Notes: a model not told the origin generated them from the letters alone. A DNA stretch of 64,000 nt from Alphaproteobacteria bacterium (GCA_015062535.1 SUUK01000001.1:399055-463054); one strand, 5' to 3'. Shown: positions 453 to 62,810, numbered from the stretch's first letter. Translations and numbers: made by a program.

Positions 453-481
453 GCCTTTCAAATTCTATTTAAAAACAAAAA

Positions 482-512
482 CTTCAAGAGGAATCCTAAA
501 CCTCCTCTTGAA
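482..512. terminator. bidirectional rho-independent terminator hairpin
   Basis: CTTCAAGAGGA..TCCTCTTGAAG is an 11-bp perfect stem lying between convergent genes. Confidence 0.5.
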
Positions 513-531
513 GTTAAACTTAATAAAAATA

Positions 532-2502
532 TTATCTCTCTTTTATTCTCAATACCGAATTTATCACTGCATTTTTATTTTTATCATCAGTATTACACAA
601 ACTTCTAACCGCATCACGAGATGTCCGAATTGTGCTATCACCAATATCTTGAGCAAAATTAAATGGCTCATTAACAGCTTTAGCTAATAACTCATATGCA
701 TTATCACCAAATTTATCATACAGTGTATTAATTGTCCTTCCAACTTCCATTGCATTTTTAGCCCCATTAATTCGGTTCATCCCTTCAATAACCTTAAGCA
801 TACGCGCTTTTTCTTTAGCCTCATTTTGCATATCTTTCTTTAAGATTTCTCTATCTTTTTTTCCAATCAATACATCAGGCTTATCTCTATTCGTTGGTTT
901 TTCAATAACATCTGCCATCAAATTTAATATTTGTGCATTTTGAACAGGAGATACCCTTTTTTCCTTGCTCCATTCATGATATTGAGGAACACCTTTACTT
1001 ATATCATGAATTGGTTGATTATCATGCCCTCTAAGATTTTCACTATTTTCATTTCCCAACCAACTTTTTACAGCATCAACACAATCACTTCCAAATTCCA
1101 TACATTTCTTTCCTACTGCCAAAATAGGTGCTCCAATTCCAACCCCTAATACTTCCACAGGATAACGTAACCCATAAGGCATATTAGCAGCCTTATCATA
1201 ATCTAATTCATCACCCAAAAAGAAATTTCCATATTGTTTCACACCTCGTCCCCACATTCCCATATCTTCTAATTTTTGTTGAGCTTCTTGAGCTTTTTGA
1301 GGCAATTCTTTTAATGGCAATTCGTCATTAGGATTAAACGCCTTTCTTAAATTTATCTCACCCTCATATTTCAAATCATCTTCATTAAACTTTACTGTTC
1401 CTGTATAAATTTTATCAACTGCATCATTATATGCTTTGTCATCCCCTTCAGGTAGTTTTTCCCCTCGTTTTTCATAATCTTTTGCAATATTAGTAATAAC
1501 ATCTTCTATTACTTTTTTATCTTCTTGAGCTATATTATCAAGAGCTTCTTTATAATTTTCCTGTGTTGAATCATCAAGTTTTCCTTCTGTTAAATAATAA
1601 TATGCCGCCATATCCAAAATAAGTTTACCTTTCGTCGATTCACTTTCAGAAGAAACATAGTCTTTAGAGTTTATTCCAACTTTCGAATCTTTCATAACCA
1701 AAGCATGTTGCAATAGTTTTTGATATTGAAGCAAACTCATTTTCCCATCATATTCAGGGATTTCTAGAGCTTCTGCCCATTTTTCTCCTGATAAAATTTT
1801 AAGTTTACCCTGTTCTGGAACTTCCACATCTTTATCCATATATTTAGTAAAATCAATTCCACCAATATTATAAGCTATTTTTTTAGCTCTTTCATAATTT
1901 TCGTCATAAAACTCTGCATTTTTACCATCTTCTTCACCATAATATTTAGCATTTATAATATGATCATCTAGATAGAAATTAGATGCATACGTTTTCACCC
2001 ACATATCACGTGTTCCATTGACAATTAATGCCATTTCTTTATCAAAATCTTCTTTAGAATTACTAAATGGATTTATTTCCCCATTTTTAATAGCATCTAT
2101 ATAAAAATCAAAATTACTTTTATCTTCTTCAAAAACAGAAATATCTCCAGTTTTTAAATATTTATCTCTTAAATAAATTAATCCTGCCATATTTGCTGAT
2201 ATTTCATCATGCATACAAACTTTATAAGCCTGCTCCACAGACATTGCATATGCGTGTATACCTTGGTTTGCATTATCACGGTGTTTTTGTTCATGTATTA
2301 GAACAGCACCACTTCCACTCCATTTGTTAAAATCTTCATCATTTTCTAAATAATTAATAGTGATACTATTATTAGCAGGATTAAAATATCCACCAGTACC
2401 TGTGTTATTAGCCAATGTATCCACCTGAAAATCAACATTGCGCATTCTCTCTGTGGCTTCATCAAAATCTTTTTTCATACTTTTTTTCAAATCATCCCTC
2501 AT
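532..2502 (-). CDS. large acidic hypothetical protein with N-terminal HExxH zincin-like motif (possible secreted metalloprotease/effector)
   Basis: 656-aa ORF with HEQKH at residues 70-74 (nt 2281-2295) and a downstream Glu-rich segment. It has no TM segment or signal peptide and is lysine/glutamate-rich. Confidence 0.35.
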   Translation of the reverse strand: MRDDLKKSMKKDFDEATERMRNVDFQVDTLANNTGTGGYFNPANNSITINYLENDEDFNKWSGSGAVLIHEQKHRDNANQGIHAYAMSVEQAYKVCMHDEISANMAGLIYLRDKYLKTGDISVFEEDKSNFDFYIDAIKNGEINPFSNSKEDFDKEMALIVNGTRDMWVKTYASNFYLDDHIINAKYYGEEDGKNAEFYDENYERAKKIAYNIGGIDFTKYMDKDVEVPEQGKLKILSGEKWAEALEIPEYDGKMSLLQYQKLLQHALVMKDSKVGINSKDYVSSESESTKGKLILDMAAYYYLTEGKLDDSTQENYKEALDNIAQEDKKVIEDVITNIAKDYEKRGEKLPEGDDKAYNDAVDKIYTGTVKFNEDDLKYEGEINLRKAFNPNDELPLKELPQKAQEAQQKLEDMGMWGRGVKQYGNFFLGDELDYDKAANMPYGLRYPVEVLGVGIGAPILAVGKKCMEFGSDCVDAVKSWLGNENSENLRGHDNQPIHDISKGVPQYHEWSKEKRVSPVQNAQILNLMADVIEKPTNRDKPDVLIGKKDREILKKDMQNEAKEKARMLKVIEGMNRINGAKNAMEVGRTINTLYDKFGDNAYELLAKAVNEPFNFAQDIGDSTIRTSRDAVRSLCNTDDKNKNAVINSVLRIKER

Positions 2503-20639: not shown

Positions 20640-20668
20640 AAACTTAAGTATTTGTAAACAAAAAAACC
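20640..20668 (-). terminator. rho-independent terminator on minus strand
   Basis: On the minus strand, AAAACCGTCCGAGAGGGCGGTTTTTTGTTT. Confidence 0.45.
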
Positions 20669-21090
20669 GCCCTCTCGGACGGTTTTCTATATGGTCGAAA
20701 CTAGAGGATTGACTTCGTCGAAACTTAACGGTTGCTTCGCACCGGCATACTCCCGTCTGCCTACCGTTTGTTTTCAAACCACCTTTTTCGGAGCTTCAAA
20801 TCCCATCACTTCATGATAATAAAACAAAAAGCCCACCACAAGGGCAGGCTCTTTGTTTTATGGTCGAGGTTAGTAAGATAAAACCGAAAAAAATATACAC
20901 TTTTTCTTACTAACTTTCTGCATGAGTTTAATCTACTTCAGAATTTTGTAATTTGCAATACCTTTTTTTATTTTTTTGACTGATACCTTGGATTGTTCGT
21001 AACTATCTAAGTCTGATGAATGCCATTTTTTTGAATAAGTTTTTTTATTTATTTTCAATAAATTACAAAATAATCAAAAAATTTTTTATC

Positions 21091-21145: not shown

Positions 21146-21310
21146 ATGACCCTAGCAGAAAATTTAGTAAAAACCATACTGCCGGAATTTTTAACATATT
21201 TAGATAAGTTAGAAAAAGGCGAAATAGTTGAGAAAGAACTGGATATAAATAAAAATCCAAGCATTCATAGCGATGTAAACAAATCGAAAGGAGTCGAAAA
21301 ATGCAGTTAG
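21146..21310 (+). CDS. small phage protein preceding DUF2924/serine recombinase (candidate regulator or directionality factor)
   Basis: RBS GGAGG lies 6 nt upstream of the ATG at 21146. The 54-aa ORF overlaps the next gene by 10 nt. Confidence 0.3.
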   Translation: MTLAENLVKTILPEFLTYLDKLEKGEIVEKELDINKNPSIHSDVNKSKGVEKCS

Positions 21311-21708
21311 CACTAGAAATCGCAAGATTAGAAACACTTCCGCTTACCGAATTACGTCGTTTATGGAAGCATTACTTTAAAACCGATTGTGAAATCCAAA
21401 AAAAGGATTATTACATTTCAAGAATTGCCTATCGAATGCAAGAACTGGAATTAGGCGGTTTGAAAGCATCAACTAAAAAGATGATTGCAGAAATTTGTGA
21501 GTCAACAAAAAAGCATAAATCACTACCGCCATATGGAACACGAATTGTTCGTGAATATAAAGGTGTTGAACACTCAGTCAAAATAGTTATGGGAGGCTTT
21601 GAATATAATGGAATGAAATATAAAAGCCTATCCAGTATCGCAAAATTGATAACCGGTAGCAAAATATCGGGAAACTACTTTTTTGGATTAGAACGATATA
21701 AGGAGTAA
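21301..21708 (+). CDS. DUF2924-family protein (commonly paired with large serine recombinases)
   Basis: C-terminal ..SLSSIAKLITGSKISGNYFFGL is characteristic of the family. The gene is coupled to the downstream recombinase (TAA-ATG at 21708-21711). Confidence 0.5.
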   Translation: MQLALEIARLETLPLTELRRLWKHYFKTDCEIQKKDYYISRIAYRMQELELGGLKASTKKMIAEICESTKKHKSLPPYGTRIVREYKGVEHSVKIVMGGFEYNGMKYKSLSSIAKLITGSKISGNYFFGLERYKE

Positions 21709-21710
21709 AC

Positions 21711-23411
21711 ATGGAACAGAAAATAATCAGATGTGCAGTATACACTCGTAAATCAACAGAAGAAGGGTTAGACAAGGAGTTTAACACTTTAGAAGCTCAA
21801 CGAGAGGCTGGTGAAAACTATATCAAGAGCCAAAAACAACAAGGTTGGGTCTTGCTTCCACAGCATTATGATGATGGTGGTTATAGCGGTGGCACATTAA
21901 AACGTCCTGCCCTTCAAAGACTATTGTCTGATGTGCAAAATGGTAATATTGATATGATTGTTGTTTATAAAATTGACCGCTTAACCCGTTCTTTGCTAGA
22001 CTTTTCACAACTGATTAAAACGCTTGATGCACATAATTGTTCTTTTGTTTCTGTTACACAAAATTTTAACACTTGCGATTCCATGGGTAAACTGACCTTG
22101 AACATTTTATTATCGTTTGCCCAATTTGAACGAGAAGTAAGTGCTGAACGTATCCGAGACAAAATTGCCGCCACCAAGAAAAAAGGTATGTGGACTGGTG
22201 GTAGCGTTCCCCTTGGCTATGATGTTAAAAATAAAAAATTAGTAGTTAATCAGGAAGAAGCAAAAATAGTTCGCTATCTATTTGAAGAATATTTACGTTG
22301 TCGGTCAGAAGTTCAAGTGAGCAGAAACGCCAACGAAATGGGCTATCACTCTAAAGCTCGTAAAGTTCGTAATAGTCAAGGAGAAGTTGCCTTGTCTTTT
22401 AACCATGCGATGATTAATAATTTACTCCGTAATCCTATTTATATTGGAAAGATACCTTACAAAACAGAATTGTTTGATGGACTACACAAAGCGATAATTC
22501 CTATGGATTTGTGGAATCAAGTACAAGAATTAAAAAGGCTTAACCGCCGAGAACGTTTTGCCCCCTCCCGTTCTGTTAAAAATTCATTATTAAAAGGCCT
22601 TGTAGAATGTGAATGTTGCGGCACAATGACACCTACCCGCTGCAAACGAAAAAACAAATATTACGAGTATTATACTTCATCAAAAGCTGTCAAAGAAGGT
22701 CATCATTTATGTAGAACAGGAAGTGTTCCAGCAGGTGAGTTAGATAGATTTGTTTTGGATAAAGTTAGAAATGCATTCAAATCTCCAGAAATTATTCAAG
22801 AATTAGTGCATCAAATTAAACCGTACAAACCTGAGTATGGCGTAAGAGAAGTTTTTGACATTGTGCAGTCGGTTGATAAAGTTTTTGAGCATTTTGAACC
22901 GGCAACATTACAGTCAATCATAAAACAACTTGTTGATAAAGTCATTATACACAAAGGCAAAGTTGTCATTCGATTTAACAGTTTTGGCGTATCGTTGCTT
23001 GATGATAATATTAAATTTCAAAATGAGTTTAATAAAAAAACACTAGAATTTACTTATAATGTTACGTTGGCTCGTAAAAGAGGTCGAGTAAAAATAGTCA
23101 ATCCTCTTCCGTCAGAAACACCTGAAAAAGACGAGATTTTAATAAATGCCGTATCCAAAGCCTTTAAATGGCAAGATTTGTTGGAAAGAACAAATTTAAC
23201 AATTGCAGAATTAGCCCGAAGAGAAAAAATTGACAGGACATATATGGGACGCATTTTAAAACTATGTTCTCTTGCTCCCGAAATTATTAATGCAATTATA
23301 GAGGGAAAACAACCACGATTGCTTAATTTACAAGTCTTTACCAGAAACCAAATCCCTCTTTTATGGAGTGAACAACTTAAAAAATATGGTTTTGTTTACG
23401 ATTCGCACTGA
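21711..23411 (+). CDS. large serine recombinase (phage integrase, resolvase/invertase N-terminal domain + recombinase domain + zinc ribbon)
   Basis: N-terminus VYTRKSTEEG..QREA has the catalytic Ser/Arg context. It is followed by a recombinase domain and Cys clusters (CECCG..C) over 566 aa. Confidence 0.9.
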   Translation: MEQKIIRCAVYTRKSTEEGLDKEFNTLEAQREAGENYIKSQKQQGWVLLPQHYDDGGYSGGTLKRPALQRLLSDVQNGNIDMIVVYKIDRLTRSLLDFSQLIKTLDAHNCSFVSVTQNFNTCDSMGKLTLNILLSFAQFEREVSAERIRDKIAATKKKGMWTGGSVPLGYDVKNKKLVVNQEEAKIVRYLFEEYLRCRSEVQVSRNANEMGYHSKARKVRNSQGEVALSFNHAMINNLLRNPIYIGKIPYKTELFDGLHKAIIPMDLWNQVQELKRLNRRERFAPSRSVKNSLLKGLVECECCGTMTPTRCKRKNKYYEYYTSSKAVKEGHHLCRTGSVPAGELDRFVLDKVRNAFKSPEIIQELVHQIKPYKPEYGVREVFDIVQSVDKVFEHFEPATLQSIIKQLVDKVIIHKGKVVIRFNSFGVSLLDDNIKFQNEFNKKTLEFTYNVTLARKRGRVKIVNPLPSETPEKDEILINAVSKAFKWQDLLERTNLTIAELARREKIDRTYMGRILKLCSLAPEIINAIIEGKQPRLLNLQVFTRNQIPLLWSEQLKKYGFVYDSH

Positions 23412-23423
23412 TTTTTTATAAAA

Positions 23424-23476
23424 TTGACATAACCGTATGTATTGGATTCCATACGGTTATATGCGTTTGACATAAC
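23424..23476. promoter_or_regulatory. operator-like inverted repeat flanked by direct TTGACATAAC repeats
   Basis: AACCGTATG-TATTGGATTC-CATACGGTT is a 9-bp perfect inverted repeat. TTGACATAAC occurs at 23424 and 23466. Confidence 0.4.
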
Positions 23477-23593
23477 ATATTATTTTTATTTAATTTTCCT
23501 ACGGAAAAAATTATTTAATCCTTTCGTTTATATAGCCGAAAGCATATCATTTTTTTGTAACTATCCCCCAAAATTTTTACGAAAGGATGATAT

Positions 23594-24094
23594 ATGCCGA
23601 AGCAAAACAGCGGTGGTCTTCCACCAAAAATTGAAATGTATATTCGTATTCATGTGGCGAGTTTATATAAAACAAATTTGTTTCAATACCAAGAGCGAGA
23701 CGACCTACTTCAGGAACTCGCTCTTTTTTATATTGAAAGGTTTTACAAAAAAGATGAAGACATACCAGATGAGCTACTTTTCATTGCCCTAAAACGAAAG
23801 GCACAGCAAATACTTCGCTCCCGACTACTTAGCATGAAGTCGGGAGTTTTTTTTAATGAGTCATTAAATCGTATGTCAGAGGAAAAAGGATTTGAACTTA
23901 CTTCGAAGTTTTGTTTAGAGGATTTAGAAAATGAAATAGATTTAAGATATTTATTAAAAATGCTCTCAGAAAAAGAACAGGAATTTATAAAACGACTATT
24001 TCAAGGAGAAAAATTAAATGATGTTTATCAATCACTTAAAATGTCAAAAGGAACACCAAAAAGGATTGCTGAGAAAATAAAGAAAAAAATTTGA
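23594..24094 (+). CDS. phage-encoded sigma-70-family (ECF-like) sigma factor
   Basis: 166 aa with a region-2-like segment (LLQELALFYIERFY) and a C-terminal region-4 HTH (LSEKEQEFIKRLFQGEKLNDVYQSL). Confidence 0.5.
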   Translation: MPKQNSGGLPPKIEMYIRIHVASLYKTNLFQYQERDDLLQELALFYIERFYKKDEDIPDELLFIALKRKAQQILRSRLLSMKSGVFFNESLNRMSEEKGFELTSKFCLEDLENEIDLRYLLKMLSEKEQEFIKRLFQGEKLNDVYQSLKMSKGTPKRIAEKIKKKI

Positions 24095-25673: not shown

Positions 25674-26675
25674 ATGAAAAAAACAGCAGAGTTCGTTTCG
25701 CTCGGACATCCGGACAAAACGGCCGACTATATTTCCAGTTATATCCTTGACCGTATGATCGCCCAAGACCCGGACGTAAAATACGCCGTTGAGGTTATGG
25801 TCAAAGACAACACCGTCGTGTTAGGAGGCGAAATCAAAGGAAAAGTTGTCCTATCAGATGTCAAAGAGTTCGTTAAAAATGCCCTGAGAGATATCGGTTA
25901 TGATGAAAAATACGCCGAAGTTTGGGGCAAAAATGCCATAGATGTTCGTAAAATCGAAGTCATCAACCTCATCGGTCAGCAGTCAGCAGACATCAACCAA
26001 GGCGTAGTAGCCAATGGTTGGGGCGACCAAGGTGTATTTGTCGGTTACGCTTGTAAAGGTGAAGGCTTGATTAACCGAGAGCTTTATCTCGCTCGTACCC
26101 TTAACAATGCCCTTTATATTAAGGCTCGTCAAAGCAAAAACCTTGGAATTGACATTAAAACACAGATTACCTTAAACGACTACGGCCGAATTGAAACGGC
26201 TGTCGTTGCCATTCCGATGAAAGAACCGGAAGATTTAACAGATTTTATCATTGAAACACTCGGAGAAAAGCCCGACAACATCATTGTTAACGGCACCGGA
26301 AGTTTCAAATTGCATTCCTCCATCGCAGACTGCGGCATTACCGGTCGCAAATTGGCCTGCGATTTTTACTCTACTGCCTGTCCGATCGGTGGTGGCTCGC
26401 CTTGGACTAAAGACGGCAGCAAGGCAGATGTAACCCTGAACATCTATGCTCGCCGTTTAGCTCTTCGTTATTTGGAAGATAACGACGAATGCTTTGTCTA
26501 TCTCTCCTCCTGCATCGGTCGAGCCGAACTGCCCAGTGCAGTTGTTAAAACAATCAAGTCAGGTGTCGAGACAAATACCGCCATCTCGGTGGCCAAAACC
26601 CCAATTGAACTGGCCGAAGAATTGGATTTAACAAAGCCGGTTTTCGCCCGTTTATGTCGAAATGGTTTGATATAA
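25674..26675 (+). CDS. divergent, shortened S-adenosylmethionine synthetase (MetK-like) encoded by phage
   Basis: Aligns with bacterial MetK across its length. Matching segments include SLGHPDKTADYIS (GHPDK), SADINQGV, GWGDQGVFVGYA (GAGDQG), DIKTQIT, ADCGITGRKL and IGGGSPWTKDGSKADVT. The catalytic His, Asp and Lys residues are conserved. At 333 aa it has lost part of the C-terminal domain. Confidence 0.75.
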   Translation: MKKTAEFVSLGHPDKTADYISSYILDRMIAQDPDVKYAVEVMVKDNTVVLGGEIKGKVVLSDVKEFVKNALRDIGYDEKYAEVWGKNAIDVRKIEVINLIGQQSADINQGVVANGWGDQGVFVGYACKGEGLINRELYLARTLNNALYIKARQSKNLGIDIKTQITLNDYGRIETAVVAIPMKEPEDLTDFIIETLGEKPDNIIVNGTGSFKLHSSIADCGITGRKLACDFYSTACPIGGGSPWTKDGSKADVTLNIYARRLALRYLEDNDECFVYLSSCIGRAELPSAVVKTIKSGVETNTAISVAKTPIELAEELDLTKPVFARLCRNGLI

Positions 26676-27260: not shown

Positions 27261-28529
27261 ATGGAGAATTACATGGAATTTAATGAAAAATATCCTACCG
27301 AAAAGCTCATCCCATATGCCCGAAACTCTCGGACACATAACGATGAACAAATCGCCCAAATTGTGGCAAGCATTAAGGAGTTCGGTTTCACGAACCCAAT
27401 CCTGATTGGAGATGATGATGTTATAATCGCCGGTCATGGTCGCCTTATGGCCGCACAACGTCTTGGCATGACAGAGGTTCCGGTCATCAGGTTGCCTCAC
27501 TTAACCGAAACACAACGCCGGGCCTTGGTCATTGCCGACAATAAGATTGCTCTGAATGCCGGATGGGATGAAGAGATGCTCCACCTTGAAATGGAAGAAC
27601 TCTCGGAATTGAACTTTGATTTGAACCTGCTTGGGTTTAACCCTGATGAGTTGAATGAAATCCAATTATTCGGTGAGGAAAAGTCGTCCGGTAACACAGA
27701 TGATGACGAAGTTCCGGAAGCACCTGAGGAAGCCATCACAAAACGTGGCGACATTTGGCAACTGGGCCGACACCGTCTGATTTGTGGCGATACCACCATG
27801 ATAGATGACGTTAAAAAGCTAATGCAGGACGAAGTCGCCGATATGATTTTCACAGACCCTCCATATAATGTGAACTATGGTTCCACCATGAAAGACAGCA
27901 TACGCTATCATGCCGGTTCACTCGGTGGCCGAAAGATTATGAACGATAACCTTGGCGAAGGTTTTGCTCAGTTCCTGACGGATAGCTTATCCAATATGAT
28001 GATGTATTGTAAAGGTGCGGCCTATGTATGCATGAGTTCATCTGAACTGCACACCCTTTATAACTCGTTCATCAATGCCGGTGGCAAATGGTCGACCTTC
28101 ATCATTTGGAAAAAGAACACCTTTACCCTTGGCCGAGCTGACTATCAGCGACAATATGAGCCTATTCTTTACGGTTGGAATGCCGAACAAAAACATCATT
28201 GGTGTGGTGACCGGGATCAGGCAGACGTTTGGGAATACAATAAACCGGTCAAAAACGACTTACACCCGACAATGAAGCCGGTTGAACTGGTGGAAAGAGC
28301 TATAAATAACAGCTCTAAAATCGGGAATATCGTTTTAGATGGTTTCGGAGGCTCCGGCTCGACGCTGATTGCGTGCGAAAAGACGGGTCGTTCTGCCCGA
28401 TTAATTGAGCTAGATCCGAAGTTTTGTGACGTCATCATCAGGCGTTGGGAGGAATATACCGGTAACAAAGCCCAACTTATTGAAAATAAAGCAGAAATAA
28501 TCGAAAATGATGCAGAATTAACTGGATAA
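27261..28529 (+). CDS. ParB-like nuclease domain fused to beta-class N6A/N4C DNA methyltransferase
   Basis: N-terminal ParB/Srx fold (GHGRLMAAQRLG) is followed by a methyltransferase with DPPYN (motif IV) preceding LDGFGGSGST (motif I). Length is 422 aa. Confidence 0.85.
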   Translation: MENYMEFNEKYPTEKLIPYARNSRTHNDEQIAQIVASIKEFGFTNPILIGDDDVIIAGHGRLMAAQRLGMTEVPVIRLPHLTETQRRALVIADNKIALNAGWDEEMLHLEMEELSELNFDLNLLGFNPDELNEIQLFGEEKSSGNTDDDEVPEAPEEAITKRGDIWQLGRHRLICGDTTMIDDVKKLMQDEVADMIFTDPPYNVNYGSTMKDSIRYHAGSLGGRKIMNDNLGEGFAQFLTDSLSNMMMYCKGAAYVCMSSSELHTLYNSFINAGGKWSTFIIWKKNTFTLGRADYQRQYEPILYGWNAEQKHHWCGDRDQADVWEYNKPVKNDLHPTMKPVELVERAINNSSKIGNIVLDGFGGSGSTLIACEKTGRSARLIELDPKFCDVIIRRWEEYTGNKAQLIENKAEIIENDAELTG

Positions 28530-28608
28530 ATTTCGAATAACAAGCAACAATGTAATTGTAAGGAAAGGCAGAGAAAGCCTTGAAAAACAAGAACAAAAGG
28601 AGCTTAAA
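28481..28608 (+). promoter_or_regulatory. conserved promoter-leader element, copy A (contains ATGCAGAATTAACTGGATA and a conserved RBS CAAAAGGAGC)
   Basis: About 80% identical over roughly 125 bp to 29231-29359. The core is shared with the inverted copy at 31107-31128. Confidence 0.5.
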
Positions 28609-28914
28609 ATGAAAACAGTTAAAACCTACTTAGTACGCAAACCGAGTGACTTAGAAGAAGTCATGGAGTTAACCAAAAGATACGGCAACGAAGCAACCGA
28701 AGTTAAGGTCGCCGAAACCATCCGCTTAGACGAAGAAGCTTATAAAGCGGTTTGTGAAAACCCGGTGGCCGATTACGGGTTTTTAACCGGCAAAGGCGGC
28801 TACGATGACGACGGGATGCGACAGGTCATCGCCTTAACCTGCAAGGGCCACAAAACGCTTTACGCCGATCCTTCAGGCTCAGATTACTGCCGTTACTTAG
28901 GGATTAAACAATAA
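28609..28914 (+). CDS. hypothetical small phage protein
   Basis: 101-aa ORF behind element copy A. Confidence 0.35.
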   Translation: MKTVKTYLVRKPSDLEEVMELTKRYGNEATEVKVAETIRLDEEAYKAVCENPVADYGFLTGKGGYDDDGMRQVIALTCKGHKTLYADPSGSDYCRYLGIKQ

Positions 28915-28924
28915 GGAGGTTACC

Positions 28925-29221
28925 ATGTTTTACAATAAAGAAAACTTAAACAACGCCTTTAAAGAGTTACGCAAACTGGGGTATTTTGCAAGACAGAACT
29001 TCAAATGCTGCCAAAGTTGTGCTTGGGCGGCCGTTCCAATGGATAAAGCCAAGGTGGTTTTTTACCACGCACAGGATAATGAGGATCTAATGAGATATGG
29101 CGAATGTTATTTAGCATGGACCGGTGACGTGGATGAAATCGCCGCAGTCCTTGAAAAACATGGAGTTTTGCTTAAAAAGCCCGAAAGTGAAGCCAGTCGT
29201 TTTGAAATTACGATAAAATGA
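28925..29221 (+). CDS. hypothetical small phage protein (Cys-containing: CCQSC)
   Basis: 98-aa ORF, RBS AAGGAGG 5 nt upstream. Confidence 0.35.
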   Translation: MFYNKENLNNAFKELRKLGYFARQNFKCCQSCAWAAVPMDKAKVVFYHAQDNEDLMRYGECYLAWTGDVDEIAAVLEKHGVLLKKPESEASRFEITIK

Positions 29222-29230
29222 TAAAAATTA

Positions 29231-29359
29231 TTGAAAAACAAGCACTTATTTGCAAAATAAATGCAGAATTAACTGGATATAATTCGAATTCCAAGCAATA
29301 CTGTAAGTGTAAGCAAAGGCAAGGATAGCCTAGCAAAACCTAACAAAAGGAGCATTAAA
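29231..29359 (+). promoter_or_regulatory. conserved promoter-leader element, copy B
   Basis: See copy A; the core motif is at 29261-29279. Confidence 0.5.
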
Positions 29360-29572
29360 ATGGCAAAAGAAAAAAAGAACATCTTACAGACCTTAATCGC
29401 CTATGAGCTACACCGAGGCGAAGTTGAGGAAGTCTTGATAAAATTCGGATGGGTTCGCAAAGATGCCTATTTTATGGAAAGCGAATTATACTGCTGGCTT
29501 GAAAGAGAGCCTTCAGACGAAGACATCAAAAAGGTTTTAACTGAAATCGGATACGACGTTAGTAAATTATAA
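29360..29572 (+). CDS. hypothetical small phage protein
   Basis: 70-aa ORF behind element copy B. Confidence 0.35.
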   Translation: MAKEKKNILQTLIAYELHRGEVEEVLIKFGWVRKDAYFMESELYCWLEREPSDEDIKKVLTEIGYDVSKL

Positions 29573-29582
29573 GGAGGCCACC

Positions 29583-30077
29583 ATGACAACATTACAAACA
29601 CAAAATAAAGAATGGGGATTTTGGGGAACAGCCTCAAACTACACCGGTAAAGACAACATGGCTGAGATTTGGGAAGCCGCCTTTAAGATTATCCAAGATA
29701 AAGCCGGATTTACACCTCAAGAGACCTTGGGCTTGATGGACAGCCGATGGGGTCGCCATACCGCAGACGAATTTGCCGAAGAAATCAGCTGTGATTTAGA
29801 AACATTTATCAAAGCCTTTAAGAGAAAAATGACGAAAGACCGCCTACATAGGGATTTCAATTACTATGTCGATGCGGATGCCTACAAACCTACCAAGGCC
29901 ACACGCAGGTATGAAAATTTCGCTAAGGACTTAGCCAAGTTAACAAAAACCTACGGTATCGTTATCAAGTCCATCGGTGGGGTTAGCCTTAGCTCACAAG
30001 AAGATTTGAAAAACTTCAAAGGATACACAACCGATTTAGAAAGTGGCGATTTAGAACCAGTTTGGAAGGAGAACTAA
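29583..30077 (+). CDS. hypothetical phage protein
   Basis: 164-aa ORF with RBS AAGGAGG. Confidence 0.35.
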   Translation: MTTLQTQNKEWGFWGTASNYTGKDNMAEIWEAAFKIIQDKAGFTPQETLGLMDSRWGRHTADEFAEEISCDLETFIKAFKRKMTKDRLHRDFNYYVDADAYKPTKATRRYENFAKDLAKLTKTYGIVIKSIGGVSLSSQEDLKNFKGYTTDLESGDLEPVWKEN

Positions 30078-30078
30078 G

Positions 30079-30453
30079 ATGAAAAAGAAAGCATTACCAG
30101 AACAGTATTTGGCAAAGATTAAAACCGCCGCACAACTTCTTGATAAAGAAAAAGCGTTTGTGGATACAGCGGTTTTCAAAATAAACGGAGATTACTACGG
30201 ATTTCAACCATTCGAGCAAAAATACAAAAAGAAATATACGGCAGTTGCTGAAGACAGGCTAGAAAAAATACGAGAAAGAATTATTGAATTTGAAGAGAAA
30301 CTAAAAGCAGACAACATCAATTTAATGGTCTGCTTTATTTCTATGGAAGAAGGCGGTGCTATCATTAATATCGGCCAAGAAGGTTTCAAAGAAAGAGAAC
30401 TTATTATGAAAGAACTTCAAGAACTGGAGAAGAAACATGCCCAAATATCCTGA
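30079..30453 (+). CDS. hypothetical phage protein (coiled-coil rich)
   Basis: 124-aa ORF coupled to the upstream gene. Confidence 0.35.
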   Translation: MKKKALPEQYLAKIKTAAQLLDKEKAFVDTAVFKINGDYYGFQPFEQKYKKKYTAVAEDRLEKIRERIIEFEEKLKADNINLMVCFISMEEGGAIINIGQEGFKERELIMKELQELEKKHAQIS

Positions 30454-30634
30454 TATTACAGTCGAGTTAATCGGTCAAAACGGAAACGCATTCAGCATCT
30501 TAGGAATTTGCCTGCGTGCTATGAGACAAGCCGGTTTATCTAAGGAAGAACGAGATAAGTTCTATGCTGAAGCGACTTCCGGGAATTATGACCACCTGCT
30601 GATGACCTGTATGGAATGGTTTGAAGTCGAATAA
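30437..30634 (+). CDS. hypothetical small phage protein
   Basis: 65-aa ORF overlapping the upstream gene by 17 nt. Confidence 0.35.
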   Translation: MPKYPDITVELIGQNGNAFSILGICLRAMRQAGLSKEERDKFYAEATSGNYDHLLMTCMEWFEVE

Positions 30635-30686
30635 GGCTTAAAAAAAAGAGAAAGAAAAAGTGCGGCAGTTAACCGCACCTTTTTTG

Positions 30687-31046
30687 TTACTGGATTGTTT
30701 CGGGAGTTTCATCAACCTCGGGTGCGACAGCAATCAGTCGGTATCTGCGAACCCCGTCTTTCTTTTCAGACGTAAGTGTGGCTCCGACTTGTTTACTTGC
30801 CAAGACTGACATGGCCCCTCGGACGGAGTTTTCTTTCCAACCGAGTTTATCTGCCAGTTCCTTAATGGAAACGCCTTCTTCCCTTGTCAGCATGACGGCC
30901 ATCATTGCCGTTTTGAATTGCTTGGAAGTGTTTTTAATGTCCGTATCCGGTGATGTTATCTCATTGAGCGTTTGGGTCAGTTTGTTGCCCAAGTCTTCAA
31001 GGGTTATAACATCGGCTGATTTGGTTTTGTTTTTTTGTGTTGTCAT
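30687..31046 (-). CDS. DUF3489-like winged-helix protein, antisense to phage late genes
   Basis: Start assigned to the second Met (MTTQKNKTK) at 31044-31046. It is preceded by an inverted copy of the conserved promoter-leader core at 31107-31128. The protein contains VSIKELADKLGWKENSVRGAMSVL. Confidence 0.4.
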   Translation of the reverse strand: MTTQKNKTKSADVITLEDLGNKLTQTLNEITSPDTDIKNTSKQFKTAMMAVMLTREEGVSIKELADKLGWKENSVRGAMSVLASKQVGATLTSEKKDGVRRYRLIAVAPEVDETPETIQ

Positions 31047-31142
31047 CTTATAAGTCCTTTCATTGATTAGGTTTAACACAACACAATGAATGCTTGGATT
31101 TACAATTATATCCAGTTAATTGTTGCATAAAAGGGAAAATAA

Positions 31143-31658
31143 ATGGGACAAAAGGTTTCACTTCGGGAATATGCCCGAATGCGTGGAGTTCGGCTTAATG
31201 CAGTTCAGACAGCCGTTAACTCCGGTCGCATACATAAAACGCCTGATGGGAAAATTGATGTGGAGGAAGCCAACAAGGAGTGGTTCATGAACACTGACCC
31301 GGCCAAAAGCAGAAAAGCTGATCCATTATTTGAAACATCTGACGGCGGTGGCATGCCCAAAAACGGGATGTCAAACTTTCAGCAGGCAAAAACGGCAGAC
31401 ATTTATTATCGGGCTATGCTTGCCAAGGCAAAGCTCAAAATGATTACAGGAGAAACAATTGACCGCAAAAAGGCAGGATTACACGCATTCAACCTAGGCA
31501 GATCATTAAGAGATTTGTTCGTTTCGTTTCCAACAAGGTACGGAGCTCTCATTGCGGCGGCATTGGAAACAGACGAACACAAAACGGTGGTGGTGTTAGA
31601 TGAATATATCCGAAAACTCTTATCAGAAAGCAAGGACGTTATCGACCGAGAACTTTGA
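31143..31658 (+). CDS. terminase small subunit
   Basis: N-terminal HTH VSLREYARMRGVRLNAVQTAVNSGRI is typical of small terminases. The gene sits immediately upstream of terL. Confidence 0.65.
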   Translation: MGQKVSLREYARMRGVRLNAVQTAVNSGRIHKTPDGKIDVEEANKEWFMNTDPAKSRKADPLFETSDGGGMPKNGMSNFQQAKTADIYYRAMLAKAKLKMITGETIDRKKAGLHAFNLGRSLRDLFVSFPTRYGALIAAALETDEHKTVVVLDEYIRKLLSESKDVIDREL

Positions 31659-33543
31659 TGCGGCAGATTATATTGAAGGCGAGTTTTTTCGTGGTGTTGA
31701 ACCGGATTCATATATGTCGGTCTCAGACTGGGCCGATGAATATCGAGTCCTGTCCAGTAAATCGGCATCCGAACCCGGACGTTGGCGAACATCAAGAACG
31801 CCTTATTTAAGAGAGATTATGGACTGTTTATCGCCCAAGAGCCCAATACAGAAAGTTGTCTTTATGAAAGGAGCCCAAATCGGTGGAACTGAATGTGGCA
31901 ACAACTGGATCGGATATATCATGCACAAGGCTCCAGGTCCGATAATGGCGGTGTCGCCGACTGTGGAAATGGCCAAGCGTAACTCTCGTCAACGTATTGA
32001 CCCGTTGATCGAGGACTGTCCGGCGTTAAAAAATCTGGTCAGTTCGCCTCGCTCTCGGGATAAAGGTAACACAATGCTGTCAAAAGACTTTCAAGGCGGC
32101 GTACTTGTGATGACCGGTGCAAACTCTGCTGTTGGACTTCGTTCCATGCCGGCTCGATACCTGTTTATGGACGAAGTGGACGGTTACCCTCAGGACATTG
32201 ACGGCGAAGGTGACCCAATTCTTTTGGCCGAGCGAAGAACCGCAACCTTTAACAAACGCAAAAAGATATTCTTGGTGTCAACTCCGACTATCAAGGGCTT
32301 ATCAAATATCGAGCGTGAGTTTGAAACATCAGATAAACGATACTATGTCGTGCCTTGCCCTTACTGTGGCGGATTTCAAAAGTTGGAATGGTCACAGATA
32401 CGAGCTGAAGGCGATAATGTTTATTATGAGTGCGAACATTGTAATAAACTCATCGGCGAGCATTATAAAACGCAGATGCTGGCGAATGGACATTGGCAAC
32501 CGACATCAAAAAGTGACGGCATAACGGCCGGATACCATTTGTCCTCGCTTTACTCTCCAGTCGGGTGGCTATCTTGGAAAGAATGCGTTGATATTTATGA
32601 AAAGACCAAGAAGAACCCGAGTTTGATACAAGGCTTCCAAAATACCATCTTGGGTGAAACGTTTGAACAAGAAAGCGATGCACCTGAATGGCAACGGCTT
32701 TATGAAACCAGAGAAACCTACCCAATCGGGACAGTTCCTAATGGCGGCTTATTCCTTACAGCCGGTGTGGATATTCAAAAAGACCGTATCGAATGCGAGG
32801 TTGTGGCCTGGGGACGACAAAAGCAAAGTTGGTCGGTGGAATATTTTGTTCTTGACGGCGATACGGCAAAACCTGACGTATGGCGACAATTACAAAATGT
32901 GCTTCATAAGGACTACCCACATGAAAGCGGTATCACAATGCCCATTCGGGTAATGTGTGTTGACTCCGGTTACGCAACCCAAGACGTTTATAACTTCGTC
33001 AAAAACTTTAACCAAGCCGTTTGGGGTGGCTCTGGTGCAAGAGCCAGTCAGCCTCATACCGTTGTGGCCATTAAAGGTCAAAGCCGAGACACCGCAATGC
33101 TCTTGTCAACCTCTAAAGCTGACACGAAAAAGAAAGGCCTGAAGGTTTGGAACGTATCGGGTCCGGTTGTTAAGACCGAACTTTACCGGTGGTTGAAGAT
33201 GGAACGCATTGGCGAAAATGCAACAGATTTCGGACGATGCCATTTTCCTCAATACTCGGAGGAATACTTCAAACAGCTGACCGCTGAACGACAAGTCGTG
33301 AAAATTAGCAACGGCTACCCGAAACCAGTATGGGAAAAAGACCCGGCAAGACGAAACGAAGCCTTGGACTGCCGAGTTTATGCTCGTGCCGGAGCTGCGA
33401 TTTATGGCCTAGATCGATTAAGTGAAAAGGCATGGCAAGAGTTAGAAGCCGTTATTCCGGCCCAAAGCTCGGCTGTTCCGGTTCAAAAGAAAAAACGATT
33501 TATTCAAATGCAACCAACAAAGGTGGATAATCCATGGTTATAG
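31600..33543 (+). CDS. terminase large subunit, lambda gpA family
   Basis: Begins MNISENS (lambda A begins MNISNSQ). The 647-aa protein has an ATPase Walker region (FMKGAQIGGTE) and Zn-finger cysteines CPYCGG..CEHC. Confidence 0.9.
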   Translation: MNISENSYQKARTLSTENFDAADYIEGEFFRGVEPDSYMSVSDWADEYRVLSSKSASEPGRWRTSRTPYLREIMDCLSPKSPIQKVVFMKGAQIGGTECGNNWIGYIMHKAPGPIMAVSPTVEMAKRNSRQRIDPLIEDCPALKNLVSSPRSRDKGNTMLSKDFQGGVLVMTGANSAVGLRSMPARYLFMDEVDGYPQDIDGEGDPILLAERRTATFNKRKKIFLVSTPTIKGLSNIEREFETSDKRYYVVPCPYCGGFQKLEWSQIRAEGDNVYYECEHCNKLIGEHYKTQMLANGHWQPTSKSDGITAGYHLSSLYSPVGWLSWKECVDIYEKTKKNPSLIQGFQNTILGETFEQESDAPEWQRLYETRETYPIGTVPNGGLFLTAGVDIQKDRIECEVVAWGRQKQSWSVEYFVLDGDTAKPDVWRQLQNVLHKDYPHESGITMPIRVMCVDSGYATQDVYNFVKNFNQAVWGGSGARASQPHTVVAIKGQSRDTAMLLSTSKADTKKKGLKVWNVSGPVVKTELYRWLKMERIGENATDFGRCHFPQYSEEYFKQLTAERQVVKISNGYPKPVWEKDPARRNEALDCRVYARAGAAIYGLDRLSEKAWQELEAVIPAQSSAVPVQKKKRFIQMQPTKVDNPWL

Positions 33544-35513: not shown

Positions 35514-36671
35514 CTATAAAGGTTCAACATCCGAAGATAATAGGTCTGTATATTTTTGATAAGTATATATTTGTCCCCATTTTTTTTCGGAATTATTTAC
35601 CAAAATCCCTAAGTCAATTAAATGATTTAAGGATTTTATGACGGTTGGTTTTGTACTTCCTATCATATTGATAATTTCAGAAACGGTAAGCATAGGTTTC
35701 TTTTGAAATGCTGAAAACACTTTCAAAGCAGATTCTGATGCTCGACCGAGAGTTTTTATCTGCTCAACATCTGCTGAAAAGATATTTTGAATATTTATAA
35801 GTGTTTTTTTAGCATCATTTGCCGTTTCAATAACACCTTCTAAAAAGAATTTAATCCAATTTTCCCAGTCTCCATCTTTACGAACACCATTGAGAGCATC
35901 ATAATACAGGGTTCTATTCTTTTTGAAGAATAAACTCAGGTATAAGAAAGGAGAATCCAGCACACCTTTTACACATAAGAAAAATGTAATTAAAAGACGA
36001 CCAAGTCTTCCATTTCCATCAAGAAATGGGTGAATTGTTTCGAACTGTACATGGATAAGAGCAGCTTTGATTAAATTTGGAATATTATCTTCATCATTCA
36101 TAAAAATTTCCAAATCTCCTAAAACAGACATGAGTTTTTCAGGAGGAACAGGCACAAATCGAGCATTACCAGGTCGTGTTCCACCAATCCAATTTTGGGA
36201 TGAACGAAATTCTCCAGGAAGTTTTGTTTTTCCCCTAGAGTTAGTAAGAAGTATTTTATGAATTTCACGAATAAGACGTAACGACAACGGAAATCCTTCT
36301 TTGATGCGTTGCAACCCATGATTTAATGCTGCCACATATGAAGATACTTCTGATGCATCTGCAACAGGAACACCTTGTGTTTGTTCTGATTCATATCTTA
36401 AAAGATCATCCAACGTTGATTGTGTCCCCTCAATTTGTGATGATAATACAGCTTCCTTACGGACATACATATAATTCAGAACAGAAGGATCTATTGTTGC
36501 TTCAACAACACCGTTAAGTTCTCCGATGGATTGATTAGCTTTTTCTAATAAAACAGATACCTCTGATAAATCAATATCAGGTTTTGGTGGTAATGGATTA
36601 GGAATAAAGGCTTGATATGTTTCAGATGTTACTGAGCATTTCACTAAAGTTCCTTGAATATCACGTTTCAT
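35514..36671 (-). CDS. Fic-family protein (class II, N-terminal inhibitory helix), cargo gene
   Basis: Canonical FIC motif HPFLDGNGRLGRLL, inhibitory motif SSQIEGT ([ST]xxxE[GN]) N-terminal, and a C-terminal winged-helix region. It is on the opposite strand between portal and prohead protease and has lower GC. Confidence 0.9.
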   Translation of the reverse strand: MKRDIQGTLVKCSVTSETYQAFIPNPLPPKPDIDLSEVSVLLEKANQSIGELNGVVEATIDPSVLNYMYVRKEAVLSSQIEGTQSTLDDLLRYESEQTQGVPVADASEVSSYVAALNHGLQRIKEGFPLSLRLIREIHKILLTNSRGKTKLPGEFRSSQNWIGGTRPGNARFVPVPPEKLMSVLGDLEIFMNDEDNIPNLIKAALIHVQFETIHPFLDGNGRLGRLLITFFLCVKGVLDSPFLYLSLFFKKNRTLYYDALNGVRKDGDWENWIKFFLEGVIETANDAKKTLINIQNIFSADVEQIKTLGRASESALKVFSAFQKKPMLTVSEIINMIGSTKPTVIKSLNHLIDLGILVNNSEKKWGQIYTYQKYTDLLSSDVEPL

Positions 36672-55430: not shown

Positions 55431-56384
55431 TTACAACAGGTCATTTAATAAATTCATACATTTAATTTTTTGTTGCATATTGGCTCGGCCATATACATTT
55501 AATGTGAAAGATACATTTTTATGACCCAAAATTTCGGATAGAGATTTAACATCAAACTCCGGGATTTCTATGGCTCGAACTGCGAAAGTATGCCGAATTT
55601 CATGAAACTTAACACTACGCAGTTTGTTTTTTTTGAGGAAACGAGCAAAAAACTGTCTGTATGTTCTTGGCTCTGTTGGTTTGGTTTTCCCTGTTAAAAA
55701 ATATTGATTAGGGTTATCAGAATAATATTTCTTTATTATATTTATCAAAAGCGATGGAAGAGGAATAGTTCGGCACGAACTTGCTGTTTTAGGTGCTCCA
55801 ATGTAAACATAAGAAGTTCCTTTTACTTTATCATAAATTCGCTGAACAGTTCTTTGAATTGTTATGGTCTTATCAATAATAGAGATGTCTCGCATTTGTA
55901 AACCACACAGCTCACCAATCCGAACGCCAGTAAATAACGCAACTAAAATACCTGCAGTACGGCGGTTCATTTTCATGTAGATGGACTGTATAAGAGCCAA
56001 TTCTTCATCTTTTGATAAAGAAATCACTTTTTTTATTCCCAAATCTTTAGGGTATTCAATTAGGTCCCAATTTAGCATAGGAATAACTTGTTCTTTATAT
56101 GCAAAAATAAGGCATAAGCGTAAGACAAGTATAATATCTCGAATTGTTTTTACTGTTAAGCCTCCTTTTTTATCAAGCCTACCTTCATTATAAAGCGTAT
56201 TGATATAACATTGTATATCAGCTTCGGTGATGCTTAATATTTTCTTTTTACCCATTGATGGAATCAAATGGTTTTCAGAAATTAAAACAAAGTTAGCATA
56301 AGTCGATGGTGTAATCATCGGTTGCTTTTGTGTTAACCATGTTTTTACTAAAGTTTTAAATTGGGTATTTTGAGTTATTTTCAT
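55431..56384 (-). CDS. tyrosine site-specific recombinase (candidate hsdS invertase)
   Basis: 317 aa with the HEIRHTFAVRAIE (HxxR) box and a C-terminal catalytic Tyr (NVYGRA). It is adjacent to the inverted hsdS cassettes and is AT-rich like the host. Confidence 0.85.
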   Translation of the reverse strand: MKITQNTQFKTLVKTWLTQKQPMITPSTYANFVLISENHLIPSMGKKKILSITEADIQCYINTLYNEGRLDKKGGLTVKTIRDIILVLRLCLIFAYKEQVIPMLNWDLIEYPKDLGIKKVISLSKDEELALIQSIYMKMNRRTAGILVALFTGVRIGELCGLQMRDISIIDKTITIQRTVQRIYDKVKGTSYVYIGAPKTASSCRTIPLPSLLINIIKKYYSDNPNQYFLTGKTKPTEPRTYRQFFARFLKKNKLRSVKFHEIRHTFAVRAIEIPEFDVKSLSEILGHKNVSFTLNVYGRANMQQKIKCMNLLNDLL

Positions 56385-56489
56385 TTTATTTATCTCCTTT
56401 GAAAAATGTTAATACCGGAGATTATTTTGCACGAAATAGCCGAAAATTAGGATTTTGGGAGCAAAAATATTAACCGCAACAGCCATGAA

Positions 56490-57700
56490 AGAGGGAAAAA
56501 TGCTCCTCCTTTAATGGTCTTGAGCCGTCTCTTCGTTTTAGAAATTTTGTAGATGATTGGGAAGAGAGTAAACTTTCATCTTTCTTTAAAAAATGCTTGG
56601 AAAAAAATAAAAATGGTCTCGTTGATAATGTTATTTGCAATTCTGCAAAAAATGGATTAATGCCTCAGCGAGATTTCTTTGACAAAGATATTGCCAACAC
56701 AGAAAATACAAACGGCTATTATATTATCCAAGAAAATGATTTTGTATATAATCCTCGTAAATCCAACGAAGCACCATATGGACCAATAAGCATATATAAA
56801 TACAAAGAAAAAGGAATTGTTTCACCTCTTTATCTTTGTTTTAGAGCCACAACAGAAATTCACCCTAGATATTTTGAAATGTATTTTAAATCTTCTGTTT
56901 GGCATAATTACATTTACTTTGCAGGAGACAGCGGTGCTCGTCATGACAGGGTAAGCATTAAAGATGATGTTTTTTTTGAAATGCCAATAAACATCCCATC
57001 TCTTCCTGAGCAACAAAAAATAGCCAACTTTCTCTCACTCGTTGACCAACGTATCGAAAAACAGCGACAACTGGTCGAAGCCCTAAAGAAGTATAAAAGA
57101 GGGTTGTTTTTGAAGCTTTATAATGAAGCTGATAAAAACATAATATTGTTTAAAAATATCTATGATATTGCATCTGAAGGTGGCACTCCTTCAACATTAG
57201 ATCCTGAGAATTACGAGAATGGAAAACTTCCATTTATTAAAATAGATGACCTAAATCAGCATTATTTAACTGCCGCAAAATATTTTATTACTGAAAAGGG
57301 ATTAAAAAAATCTAGTGCATGGATTGTTCCTGAAAATAGTATCATTTATTCAAATGGGGCAACTATTGGAGCTTGTTCTATTAATAAAATGCCTGTAACC
57401 ACAAAACAAGGAATTTTAGGTATTGTACCAAAGAGTAATTTTTCTGTGGAATTTCTTTACTTCTATTTTACATCAAGCCTTTTTAAGGAAAAAATAAGAG
57501 CAATCACAACTAAAGGAACCATGGATTGTGCTTATTTAAAAGATATAAATAACATAAAAATAAATATTCCCAATTTCATAATTCAACAAAAAATAGCAAA
57601 AGTTATGGTGAATTTTGAAAATTTAATAGAACGAACCGAGTTCGCACTTATATCCTTACAAAATATTAAAAAAGCACTTTTACAGAAAATGTTTATATAA
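56490..57700 (+). CDS. silent hsdS cassette A' (two TRDs; no ATG start, frame opens at 56490)
   Basis: HsdS-like with an N-terminal NGLEPSLRF motif, central EQQKIANFLSLVDQRIEKQRQLVEALKKYKRGL and C-terminal LLQKMFI. The first in-frame start is a TTG at 56597. Confidence 0.75.
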
Positions 57701-61217: not shown

Positions 61218-61220
61218 GGC

Positions 61221-62795: not shown

Positions 62796-62810
62796 AATTT
62801 AAATCCTTTC

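Follow-up and report, generated by a model that had tools for sequence, protein, structure and literature searches.

A two-box element heading small-gene cassettes and other units of an alphaproteobacterial prophage is a candidate phage-specific promoter module

The 64,000-nucleotide stretch of DNA analysed here (the window; Alphaproteobacteria bacterium, GCA_015062535.1, SUUK01000001.1:399055-463054) carries a compact temperate phage genome of about 33 kb, in which one short element recurs ahead of a block of six small genes and elsewhere. A preliminary description had called it a thrice-repeated promoter-leader with an embedded TATAAT. The three copies are there, but the count was too low, as a fourth, shorter copy lies at 21227-21275 (+). 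Among relatives of this prophage the element is conserved as two boxes at fixed spacing and in constant orientation, some copies directly follow terminator-like hairpins, and the genes behind it vary as cassettes. On balance we take the element to be a non-canonical, factor-dependent promoter module that also acts as a recombination handle for gene cassettes.

We call the ACTGGATA-type first box of the element the M box and the CAAGCA-type second box the D box. Copy 1 (28474-28608, +; GCAGAA box 28512-28517, M box 28521-28528, D box 28541-28546) begins, as had been reported, inside the 3' end of the methyltransferase gene at 27261-28529, within its last ~15 codons. Its leader and ribosome-binding site (RBS) extend to the ATG at 28609 and include a mini-open reading frame (mini-ORF), ATGATGCAGAATTAA. 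Copy 2 (29225-29359, +; GCAGAA box 29263-29268, M box 29272-29279, D box 29292-29297), which like copy 1 is of the type found before accessory genes, extends to the ATG at 29360. The leader and RBS are present as first written, except that the copy 2 RBS, CAAAAGGAGCATTAAAATG, is one base longer. Compared over 28474-28624 and 29225-29375, the two copies form a 151-nt direct repeat that is 73% identical ungapped, 77% identical over 133 gapped columns and 87% identical over the 38-nt core; the claimed repeat of ~125 bp at ~80% identity is thus real. The 23-mer AATTAACTGGATATAATTCGAAT occurs at three sites with three or fewer mismatches (28516+, 29267+ and 31121-) and gave zero matches in 100 dinucleotide shuffles. 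Copy 3 (31050-31128, -; M box 31116-31109, D box 31096-31091) has its core inverted at 31091-31128, as the preliminary description stated. With copy 2 it forms a 31-nt inverted repeat with 90% pairing (arms 29267-29297 and 31091-31121), and it is oriented toward the minus-strand DUF3489 gene (PF11994), from whose ATG at 31049 it is separated by a 44-nt leader; its upstream box comes within ~15 nt of the start codon of terS, which is on the opposite strand. Copy 4, AGAACTGGATATAAATAAAAATCCAAGCATTCAT at 21238 (+), was found by a looser search and has the form GAGAAAGA-ACTGGATA-N12-CAAGCA-TTCAT (M box 21238-21245, D box 21258-21263). It lies upstream of the DUF2924 and recombinase genes, 37 nt ahead of the DUF2924 start codon and within a possibly spurious 54-aa ORF (21146-21310), and it has orthologues in L164, L165, L168, L170, L172, L174, L177 and L181 (L numbers denote contigs). 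A position-weight scan of the 64-kb window returned exactly these four copies (35.8-45.5 bits), with none other above 12 bits. All four are within the prophage, sense-oriented and 37-69 nt ahead of an RBS and ATG.

Relatives were gathered by exact-pattern scans, from contigs with homologues of a sigma-like prophage protein and from contigs with DUF3489 homologues, which together gave about 68 copies, less than 90% identical pairwise, from about 40 related contigs. The invariant core of the 68 copies is ACTGGA(TA)-N12-(C/A)(A/G)AGC(A/G). The second box is usually CAAGCA followed by TTCAT or ATT, and a semi-conserved (AT)GCAGAA box lies 3-4 nt upstream of ACTGGA(TA). The spacer is AT-rich and variable in sequence and constant in length at 12 nt, and looser searches permitting 10-14 nt found true copies at 12 only; the box starts are hence 20 bp apart, about two helical turns. 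The element is kept where the DUF3489 proteins are 46-78% identical and the sigma-like proteins 27-68% identical, and it occupies the same three types of site in the relatives: before the DUF2924-recombinase pair, before DUF3489 and before the first gene after the methyltransferase. At the DNA level the 2.8-kb region matched none of the 50,697 phage records searched, and a first viral scan with an 18-mer gave chance matches only.

Every copy is sense-oriented, with an RBS between the D box and the ATG and a distance of 24-70 nt between these two (~150 nt in the exceptional L180). In L181, L172 and L177 the distance is only 24-27 nt, which leaves no room for another promoter. Some accessory copies (L163 at 11347, L178 at 12918, L183, L217 and L218) start 17 nt past a GC hairpin and CAACTTTCTT, and as these copies directly follow terminator-like hairpins, the downstream gene would need a start signal inside the element. 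In the copies before the recombinase operon (int-type) the box falls in the codons CTG GAT of a small predicted ORF with zero synonymous changes, and in the other types it lies in other frames or in noncoding DNA, so that the constraint is on the DNA rather than on a peptide.

The element heads exchangeable small-gene cassettes, one to five per phage, that are gained and lost at its 3' edge. The six small ORFs exist as first listed (starts at 28609, 28925, 29360, 29583, 30079 and 30437) and lie between the methyltransferase and terminase genes as had been said. Cassette 1 (28609-29221, +) comprises ORF1 (28609-28914, +; 101 aa, phrog_21303), which in most relatives comes straight after the methyltransferase gene, and ORF2 (28925-29221, +; 98 aa, DUF6891). 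Cassette 2 (29360-30634, +) comprises ORF3 (29360-29572, +; 70 aa), ORF4 (29583-30077, +; phrog_8020), ORF5 (30079-30453, +) and ORF6 (30437-30634, +; phrog_1933). Among near-identical relatives ORF3 may be present (the window, L086, L161 and L165-167) or absent (L079, L068, L141, L158 and L168), and the two kinds of sequence diverge at the 3' end of the copy 2 leader. The ORF3 homologue of L170 stands behind its only accessory copy, and in L162 the copy 2 leader is fused straight to the terminator with loss of ORF3-6. Only one accessory copy is found in L172, L174, L182 and L188, where copy 2 is missing, which indicates that copy 2 is a lineage-specific duplication. Four accessory copies are found in L163 and L178, and about four in L189, ahead of different small genes. 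Other cargo in the slot includes a GmrSD-like protein, T5orf172 (L170) and C5 methylases (L178, L180 and L181), and is thus partly defence-like or methylase; where checked, it carries its own ordinary promoter. The GmrSD-like case is a 690-aa DUF262/GmrSD-like protein with a DGQQR motif, encoded at 162-2234 (-) of L068, a near-identical relative, and inserted after ORF6 at a point equivalent to window 30634/30656.

The earlier statement that the six ORFs have no recognisable domains is only partly right, as ORF2 matches DUF6891 (6e-13) and PHROG families of unknown function are matched by four of the ORFs. The ORF6 family has members in over 200 records of unrelated phages (from Mycobacterium, Listeria, Arthrobacter and others). 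Searches of Pfam, PHROGs, NCBIfam and PADLOC returned only families of unknown function, with nothing from PADLOC, and PDB sequence searches with ORF4 and ORF6 gave nothing below E=0.25. Similarity to known anti-restriction, DNA-mimic or anti-defence proteins was not found in these libraries, and the anti-defence or host-takeover role that had been suggested for the six genes is unproven.

The element is not confined to these relatives (group 1). The pattern GCAGAA-N3-ACTGGATA-N14-AGC also retrieved about 14 IMG/VR contigs of a different kind (group 2; Lachnospiraceae, Ca. Heliusvirales), with a GC content of 42-47% and genes for HNH, a helix-turn-helix (HTH) protein, a ParB-methyltransferase, a C5 methylase, DUF4314, an amidoligase and a terS of the P27 type; their terL shares 75% identity with terL of Clostridium and Streptococcus suis phages. 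Just upstream of terS these phages carry two to four tandem copies of the form ...TTATG(R)TGCAGAATTGACTGGATA-N12-AGAGCGAATATGTACCTACC...AGGAGG-ATG ahead of small genes. The 21-nt sequence TGCAGAATTAACTGGATAAAT is identical in window copy 1 and L222, and the complete genome of Coprococcus phage NatCom_29765 (Ca. Heliusvirales) has exactly three copies, at 19.4-21.7 kb, the last of them ~500 nt before terS. The sole protein common to both groups is the ParB-methyltransferase (phmmer 2e-82, about 40% identity). The published description of Ca. Heliusvirales makes no mention of promoters or such repeats and reports SAM (S-adenosylmethionine) synthetase in 58.9% of genomes (PMC11283538); the SAM-synthetase-like gene beside the ParB-methyltransferase gene of our prophage is therefore another parallel between the groups. 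The box readers may differ by group, or the reader may be the ParB-methyltransferase fusion, an unrecognised small protein or the host polymerase itself. It is conceivable, although we doubt it, that ATG(R)TGCAGAATTRACTGGATA-N12-MRAGCR is an undescribed promoter class which spans host phyla and, through an unrecognised factor, switches on accessory and late genes; candidates for such a factor would be the ParB-like/methyltransferase fusion or an unrecognised small protein.

In the mechanism we propose, the element would be the prophage family's own transcription-start module. Accessory copies would consist of a promoter followed by an A-rich leader with a strong RBS, and the working core would be a bipartite box rather than a sigma-70 -10/-35 pair. 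Read as TT(A/G)ACT - 16 nt - CAAGCA, the core has the geometry of a promoter, and as the box in the '-10 position' is unlike TATAAT, a dedicated factor seems to be called for; host RNA polymerase with the housekeeping sigma alone should not open the element. Ordinary promoters are used elsewhere by the host, the phage and its cargo, as seen for a tRNA gene (TTGCAA-N17-TAAAAA), for the region upstream of the sigma-like gene (two TTGACA motifs) and for the GmrSD-like gene inserted in L068 (TTGCTT-N17-TAGAAT), so that the box belongs to a distinct class. The module would head four units, namely the DUF2924-recombinase operon, the two small-gene cassettes and the DUF3489 gene, and could act as one switch for all. 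Co-regulation by a shared element, proposed earlier for the six small genes, is thus a fair inference, but the element is not exclusive to those genes because it also heads the recombinase operon. With ~130 bp of similar sequence heading each cassette, the copies probably double as homology patches through which cassettes could be duplicated, swapped or lost.

Several features of the transcripts that would arise from this region were examined. Rfam gave no match, either for the window at gathering thresholds or for 28400-31200 at E<=1. RNAalifold found essentially no consensus structure (-0.21 kcal/mol for 11 accessory leaders and -0.33 kcal/mol for 13 group 2 elements) and 0-1 covarying pairs, so that neither compensatory changes nor a described family marks a structured cis-regulatory RNA. 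In a flank-duplex test of 63 copies the mean z was -0.18, with significance in part of group 2 only, and among single-sequence folds the copy 1 leader alone reached z=-3.2. Most accessory-type copies contain a mini-ORF (ATG, two to four codons and TAA/TGA) that ends exactly at T(A/G)A|CTGGATA, for example at 28506-28520 and 29260-29271 and also in L198 and L228. Its start and stop are kept, as is its length in most copies, and its codons vary (MQN, MMQN, MVQN, MHY, MAHI, MMPK and MALK); in L215 ACG stands in place of the ATG, with another in-frame ATG upstream. The int-type and DUF3489-type copies have no mini-ORF, and where it does occur it lacks an upstream Shine-Dalgarno sequence; we therefore regard it as a lead rather than a finding.

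The region ahead of the late genes was also inspected. Where group 1 relatives lack DUF3489, just 12 nt separate the end of a terminator hairpin from the terS ATG (L186, 2905-2955), which leaves no room for a promoter there. In the window a bidirectional intrinsic-terminator hairpin (30655-30683) and the antisense DUF3489 gene lie between the accessory operon and terS, and the 93-nt gap before terS shows no evident conserved promoter on the plus strand. Given these arrangements (window 30655-31142; L186), expression of the late genes may depend on terminator read-through.

Might the copies simply be ordinary host sigma-70 promoters, with TATAAT as the -10 and the remainder conserved only through recent duplication of the copies? 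Three of the window copies do contain TATAAT and the other one contains TAAATT, the leading TA is kept in most copies, and TTRACT resembles a -35, though it lies only 2 bp ahead of the hexamer and hence in the wrong register. However, the supposed -10 is composed of the last two bases of the first box and the start of the spacer, and in relatives its position reads TAAGTT, TAAATA, TAAATG, TAAACA, TATTCT, TAATCT, CTTCCT or CTAATC. The T at -7 is often lost, TAnnnT is not conserved among orthologous and paralogous copies, and in L180, L188 and L189, where the box is ACTGGACT, the position is not even TA-initial. The flanking ACTGGA and CAAGCA/AGAGCG boxes are fixed, and thus much better conserved than the hexamer. 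A TTGnnn or other -35-like hexamer is missing 16-18 bp upstream, where nothing is conserved, and a simple promoter scan found 10 sites versus 8.3 in shuffles, no excess. TATAAT as a functional -10 therefore had to be abandoned, and we consider this explanation quite improbable. Far less probable still is that the repeats are scars or cassette junctions left by gene shuffling and have no regulatory role. The gene content of relatives does differ at or beside the element, as scars would predict, but the boxes are identical where the sigma-like proteins are 27-30% and the recombinases 43-52% identical, and across two phage groups with different hosts, while flanks and spacer vary; such identity amid diverged proteins, flanks and spacer is the mark of purifying selection. 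Nor would scars keep a constant orientation and distance to start codons, and the indel breakpoints fall at the RBS end of the leader, not within the boxes.

Two explanations that assign the element another regulatory role are also unlikely, the RNA-based one by a hair the less so. The boxes could be an operator lying across a weak AT-rich promoter and bound on one DNA face by a phage regulator, for which DUF3489 is the best candidate; DUF3489 would then regulate itself and act on all four units as a repressor or an activator. Five aligned homologues, down to 46% overall identity, share an unchanged putative recognition helix, GWKENSVRGAMS, which parallels the invariant box; one copy precedes the DUF3489 gene itself, and this gene is one of only two on the minus strand of the prophage, a position typical of lysogeny regulators. 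A spacer that varies in sequence but keeps its length would also suit a DNA-binding protein that makes two contacts. Against this, no DUF3489 homologue was found in the Lachnospiraceae phages with the same box, and four group 1 contigs (L183, L186, L187 and L190) keep the box with no DUF3489 between ORF6 and terS. The two boxes do not repeat each other, whether directly or inverted, and phage immunity repressor/operator pairs normally diverge fast, which is not the case here. Alternatively, transcription could start upstream and the element act mainly as RNA, as a conserved 5' leader with a translated mini-ORF and/or a signal that, like lambda qut or HK022 put, lets RNA polymerase read through the terminator ahead of the late genes. 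Such a role would account for the mini-ORF, seen in most accessory-type copies of both phage groups, for the terminators that stand directly before terS with no space for a promoter, and for the stable flanking stem of some group 2 copies (z about -4). It fits poorly with the lack of a consensus structure, covariation or Rfam match, with the absence of the flanking stem from group 1, with the restriction of the Shine-Dalgarno-less mini-ORF to one type of copy, and with the copies that come right after terminators and so leave no upstream promoter.

The promoter reading, which we prefer, has points against it as well. Promoter activity is inferred from sequence, and so are the start of transcription at the element and the identity of the protein that reads it. 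The mini-ORF hints that the element region could be transcribed and translated, and control of termination, besides initiation, may be part of the system. Promoters of extracytoplasmic function (ECF) sigma factors combine an AAC-core -35 with a short CGT/GTC-like -10 at a distance of 16-17 bp. TTRACT-N16-CAAGCA fits this geometry, but an AAC core is not kept, with GACT, TACT and AAAT among the variants, and the downstream box does not resemble known ECF -10s. Profiles of the sigma-like and DUF3489 proteins found nothing among all group 2 ORFs (hmmsearch, E<=10; 50 kb of the 52.5-kb complete genome covered); hence a common reader, if any, is neither protein. Lastly, the C-terminal HTH of the sigma-like protein is hypervariable among phages with identical boxes, which argues against this protein as the reader of the upstream box.

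Within this prophage the sigma-like and DUF3489 proteins are candidate readers. The preliminary description had invoked a phage sigma factor, and a gene for an ECF-like candidate is indeed present (23594-24094, +; phrog_1740, 8e-9). The gene was found in every group 1 relative with a recovered left arm and was undetected in group 2. The protein has an ECF-type region-2 signature and a conserved N-terminal sigma2-like domain, and its fold matches, weak at E>=0.1 for a model of pLDDT 65, include ECF sigmas and phiEco32 gp36 (9m7y_F) among the top. Sigma region 4 and a -35 box do not change together here as they would for an ECF pair, and co-variation of the HTH with the box or with the region upstream of terS was not seen. 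Among the homologues (P0001-P0027) the N-terminal two-thirds are conserved and the C-terminal ~50 aa occur in at least five unrelated-looking HTH versions, a mosaic that by analogy resembles immunity determinants.

The gap between the recombinase and sigma-like genes is likewise hypervariable (window 23412-23593; L163, L165, L170, L172, L174 and L177). In the window it contains the TTGACA-type promoter region of the sigma-like gene and two TTGACATAAC repeats. It carries phage-specific inverted repeats, ATAACCGTATG/CATACGGTTAT in the window and AAGCGTATG/CATACGCTT with a compensating change in L163, and these hairpins look like terminators. Near the start codon of the sigma-like gene a conserved TTTCGTAA...TTACGAAA pairing overlaps the RBS.

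A comparison by eye with the consensus sequences of other known classes of site gave no fit. CtrA (TTAA-N7-TTAAC) gave a half-site only, which is lost in copy 4, and the GG-N10-GC of sigma-54 would require a gap of 10 where the element has 18. Sigma-28 (TAAA-N15-GCCGATAA), IHF and LexA gave no fit, the DnaA comparison (TTATCCACA against TTATCCAGT) failed in the last two bases, and a Gin/Hin invertase half-site had only TGGATAA in common. A 20-bp dyad, TGGAWWT-N6-AWWTCCA, present in window copies 2-4 and considered as an operator, is lost in L163, L170, L174 and group 2.

The prophage that carries the element follows host genes (gyrA, a peptidase and others) that extend to ~20.6 kb. From 21.1 kb its order is DUF2924, serine recombinase, the sigma-like gene, DUF6291, DUF6362, the SAM-synthetase-like gene and the ParB_N/N6_N4 methyltransferase, then the six small ORFs, the bidirectional terminator, DUF3489 (-), a lambda-type terS, terL, portal and the rest. 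The DUF2924 gene (21301-21708, +; PF11149, 2.7e-37) is the first behind copy 4 and forms an operon with the large serine recombinase gene (21711-23411, +; Resolvase/Recombinase/Zn_ribbon_recom) at the left end of the prophage. The SAM-synthetase-like gene (25674-26675, +) has all three MAT domains and adjoins the gene for the ParB_N + N6/N4 DNA methyltransferase (27261-28529, +). The terminator at 30655-30683 separates the convergent accessory operon and DUF3489 winged-helix gene (30687-31049, -; Pfam PF11994, E=1.7e-18). Near-identical copies of the prophage (94-97%) are present in several metagenome-assembled genomes (MAGs) labelled Alphaproteobacteria from sheep and human gut. In two MAG contigs, L060 and L130, the middle of ORF1 is joined to the 3' end of terL, a 4.4-kb deletion relative to window 28827-33289 that is either a decayed prophage or an assembly artefact.

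Only two prophage genes are on the minus strand, DUF3489 and a Fic/DOC gene with a C-terminal winged-helix domain (35514-36671), inserted between the portal and prohead-protease genes. The latter matches the PADLOC SoFic defence model (1.4e-118) and is thus a defence gene carried as prophage cargo. The interval between the host peptidase gene and the prophage (20640-20900) has two strong hairpins and a repeated TATGGTCGA motif and is possibly an attachment-site region or a small RNA; Rfam at gathering threshold gave no match for it. To the right of the prophage, a host locus at 55431-63818 contains a tyrosine recombinase gene (55431-56384, -) adjoining four hsdS genes or fragments in alternating orientation (56597-57700 +, 57693-58805 -, 59063-59968 + and 59961-61217 -), followed by hsdM (61221-62795) and hsdR. 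It resembles a phase-variable (shuffling) Type I restriction system.

The element invites comparison with several known systems. T4 gp55 and SPO1 gp28 and gp34 are phage-encoded sigma factors with promoter motifs of their own. The phiEco32 sigma factor gp36 likewise has its own motif, an AATGTA box centred at -11.5 (PMC12276001). Our prophage resembles these systems in its small phage-encoded sigma-like protein and in a phage-specific motif that stands before several operons and is unlike the host consensus. It differs in that the DNA-binding C-terminus of the sigma-like protein varies while the box is constant, and in that the box occurs in phages where the protein was not detected. If the box is a factor-dependent promoter, it provides a sequence handle for finding co-regulated accessory and late genes in two uncultured gut phage groups, one of which, Ca. 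Heliusvirales, is described as widespread in humans (PMC11283538). A promoter confined to this phage family would still be useful as annotation, but no surprise. The conservation of the box across phyla is the part worth following up, and raises the question of what reads a 35-bp site unchanged in phages of Alphaproteobacteria and Firmicutes.

In the late control of lambda (PR'-qut-tR' and Q) and at the put sites of HK022, a site at the start of the transcript is followed by a terminator. A conserved site that may mark a transcript start and a terminator before the packaging and structural genes are found here too, by analogy only, but a Q-like gene, put-like stem-loops and covariation were not. 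Lambdoid morons, said to have been described by Juhala et al. and by Hendrix et al. in 2000, are reportedly genes that sit with their own promoter and terminator between core genes. Similarly, the small accessory genes of our prophage lie between DNA-modification and packaging modules, each unit with its own putative start signal, in a block that ends in a terminator and varies in content between relatives. Morons use assorted ordinary promoters, whereas every cassette here uses one family-specific box; cargo inserts such as the GmrSD-like gene of L068 differ from the cassettes in bringing a separate sigma-70-type promoter.

A further parallel is with the promoter-early stem-loops (PeSLs) of T4-type phages, mobile regulatory cassettes in hyperplastic regions (PMC2839356, PMC4122927). 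Like PeSLs, the element is a short conserved repeat amid small, variable and mostly unknown genes, and some copies are composite, with a terminator hairpin joined to a proposed start signal. In both, close relatives show indels and swaps beside the repeats (here the ORF3 indel and the L162 deletion), and the repeats have been proposed as homology for modular shuffling. PeSLs carry a canonical sigma-70 early promoter, whereas the core of the element is non-canonical, its hairpin lies upstream of some copies only rather than in every unit, and the phage is temperate and of about 33 kb, not a T4-like myovirus. The element also differs from PeSLs in heading core operons (recombinase and DUF3489). 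As with PeSLs, the layout of the cassettes suggests that small genes are traded by recombination between identical start modules.

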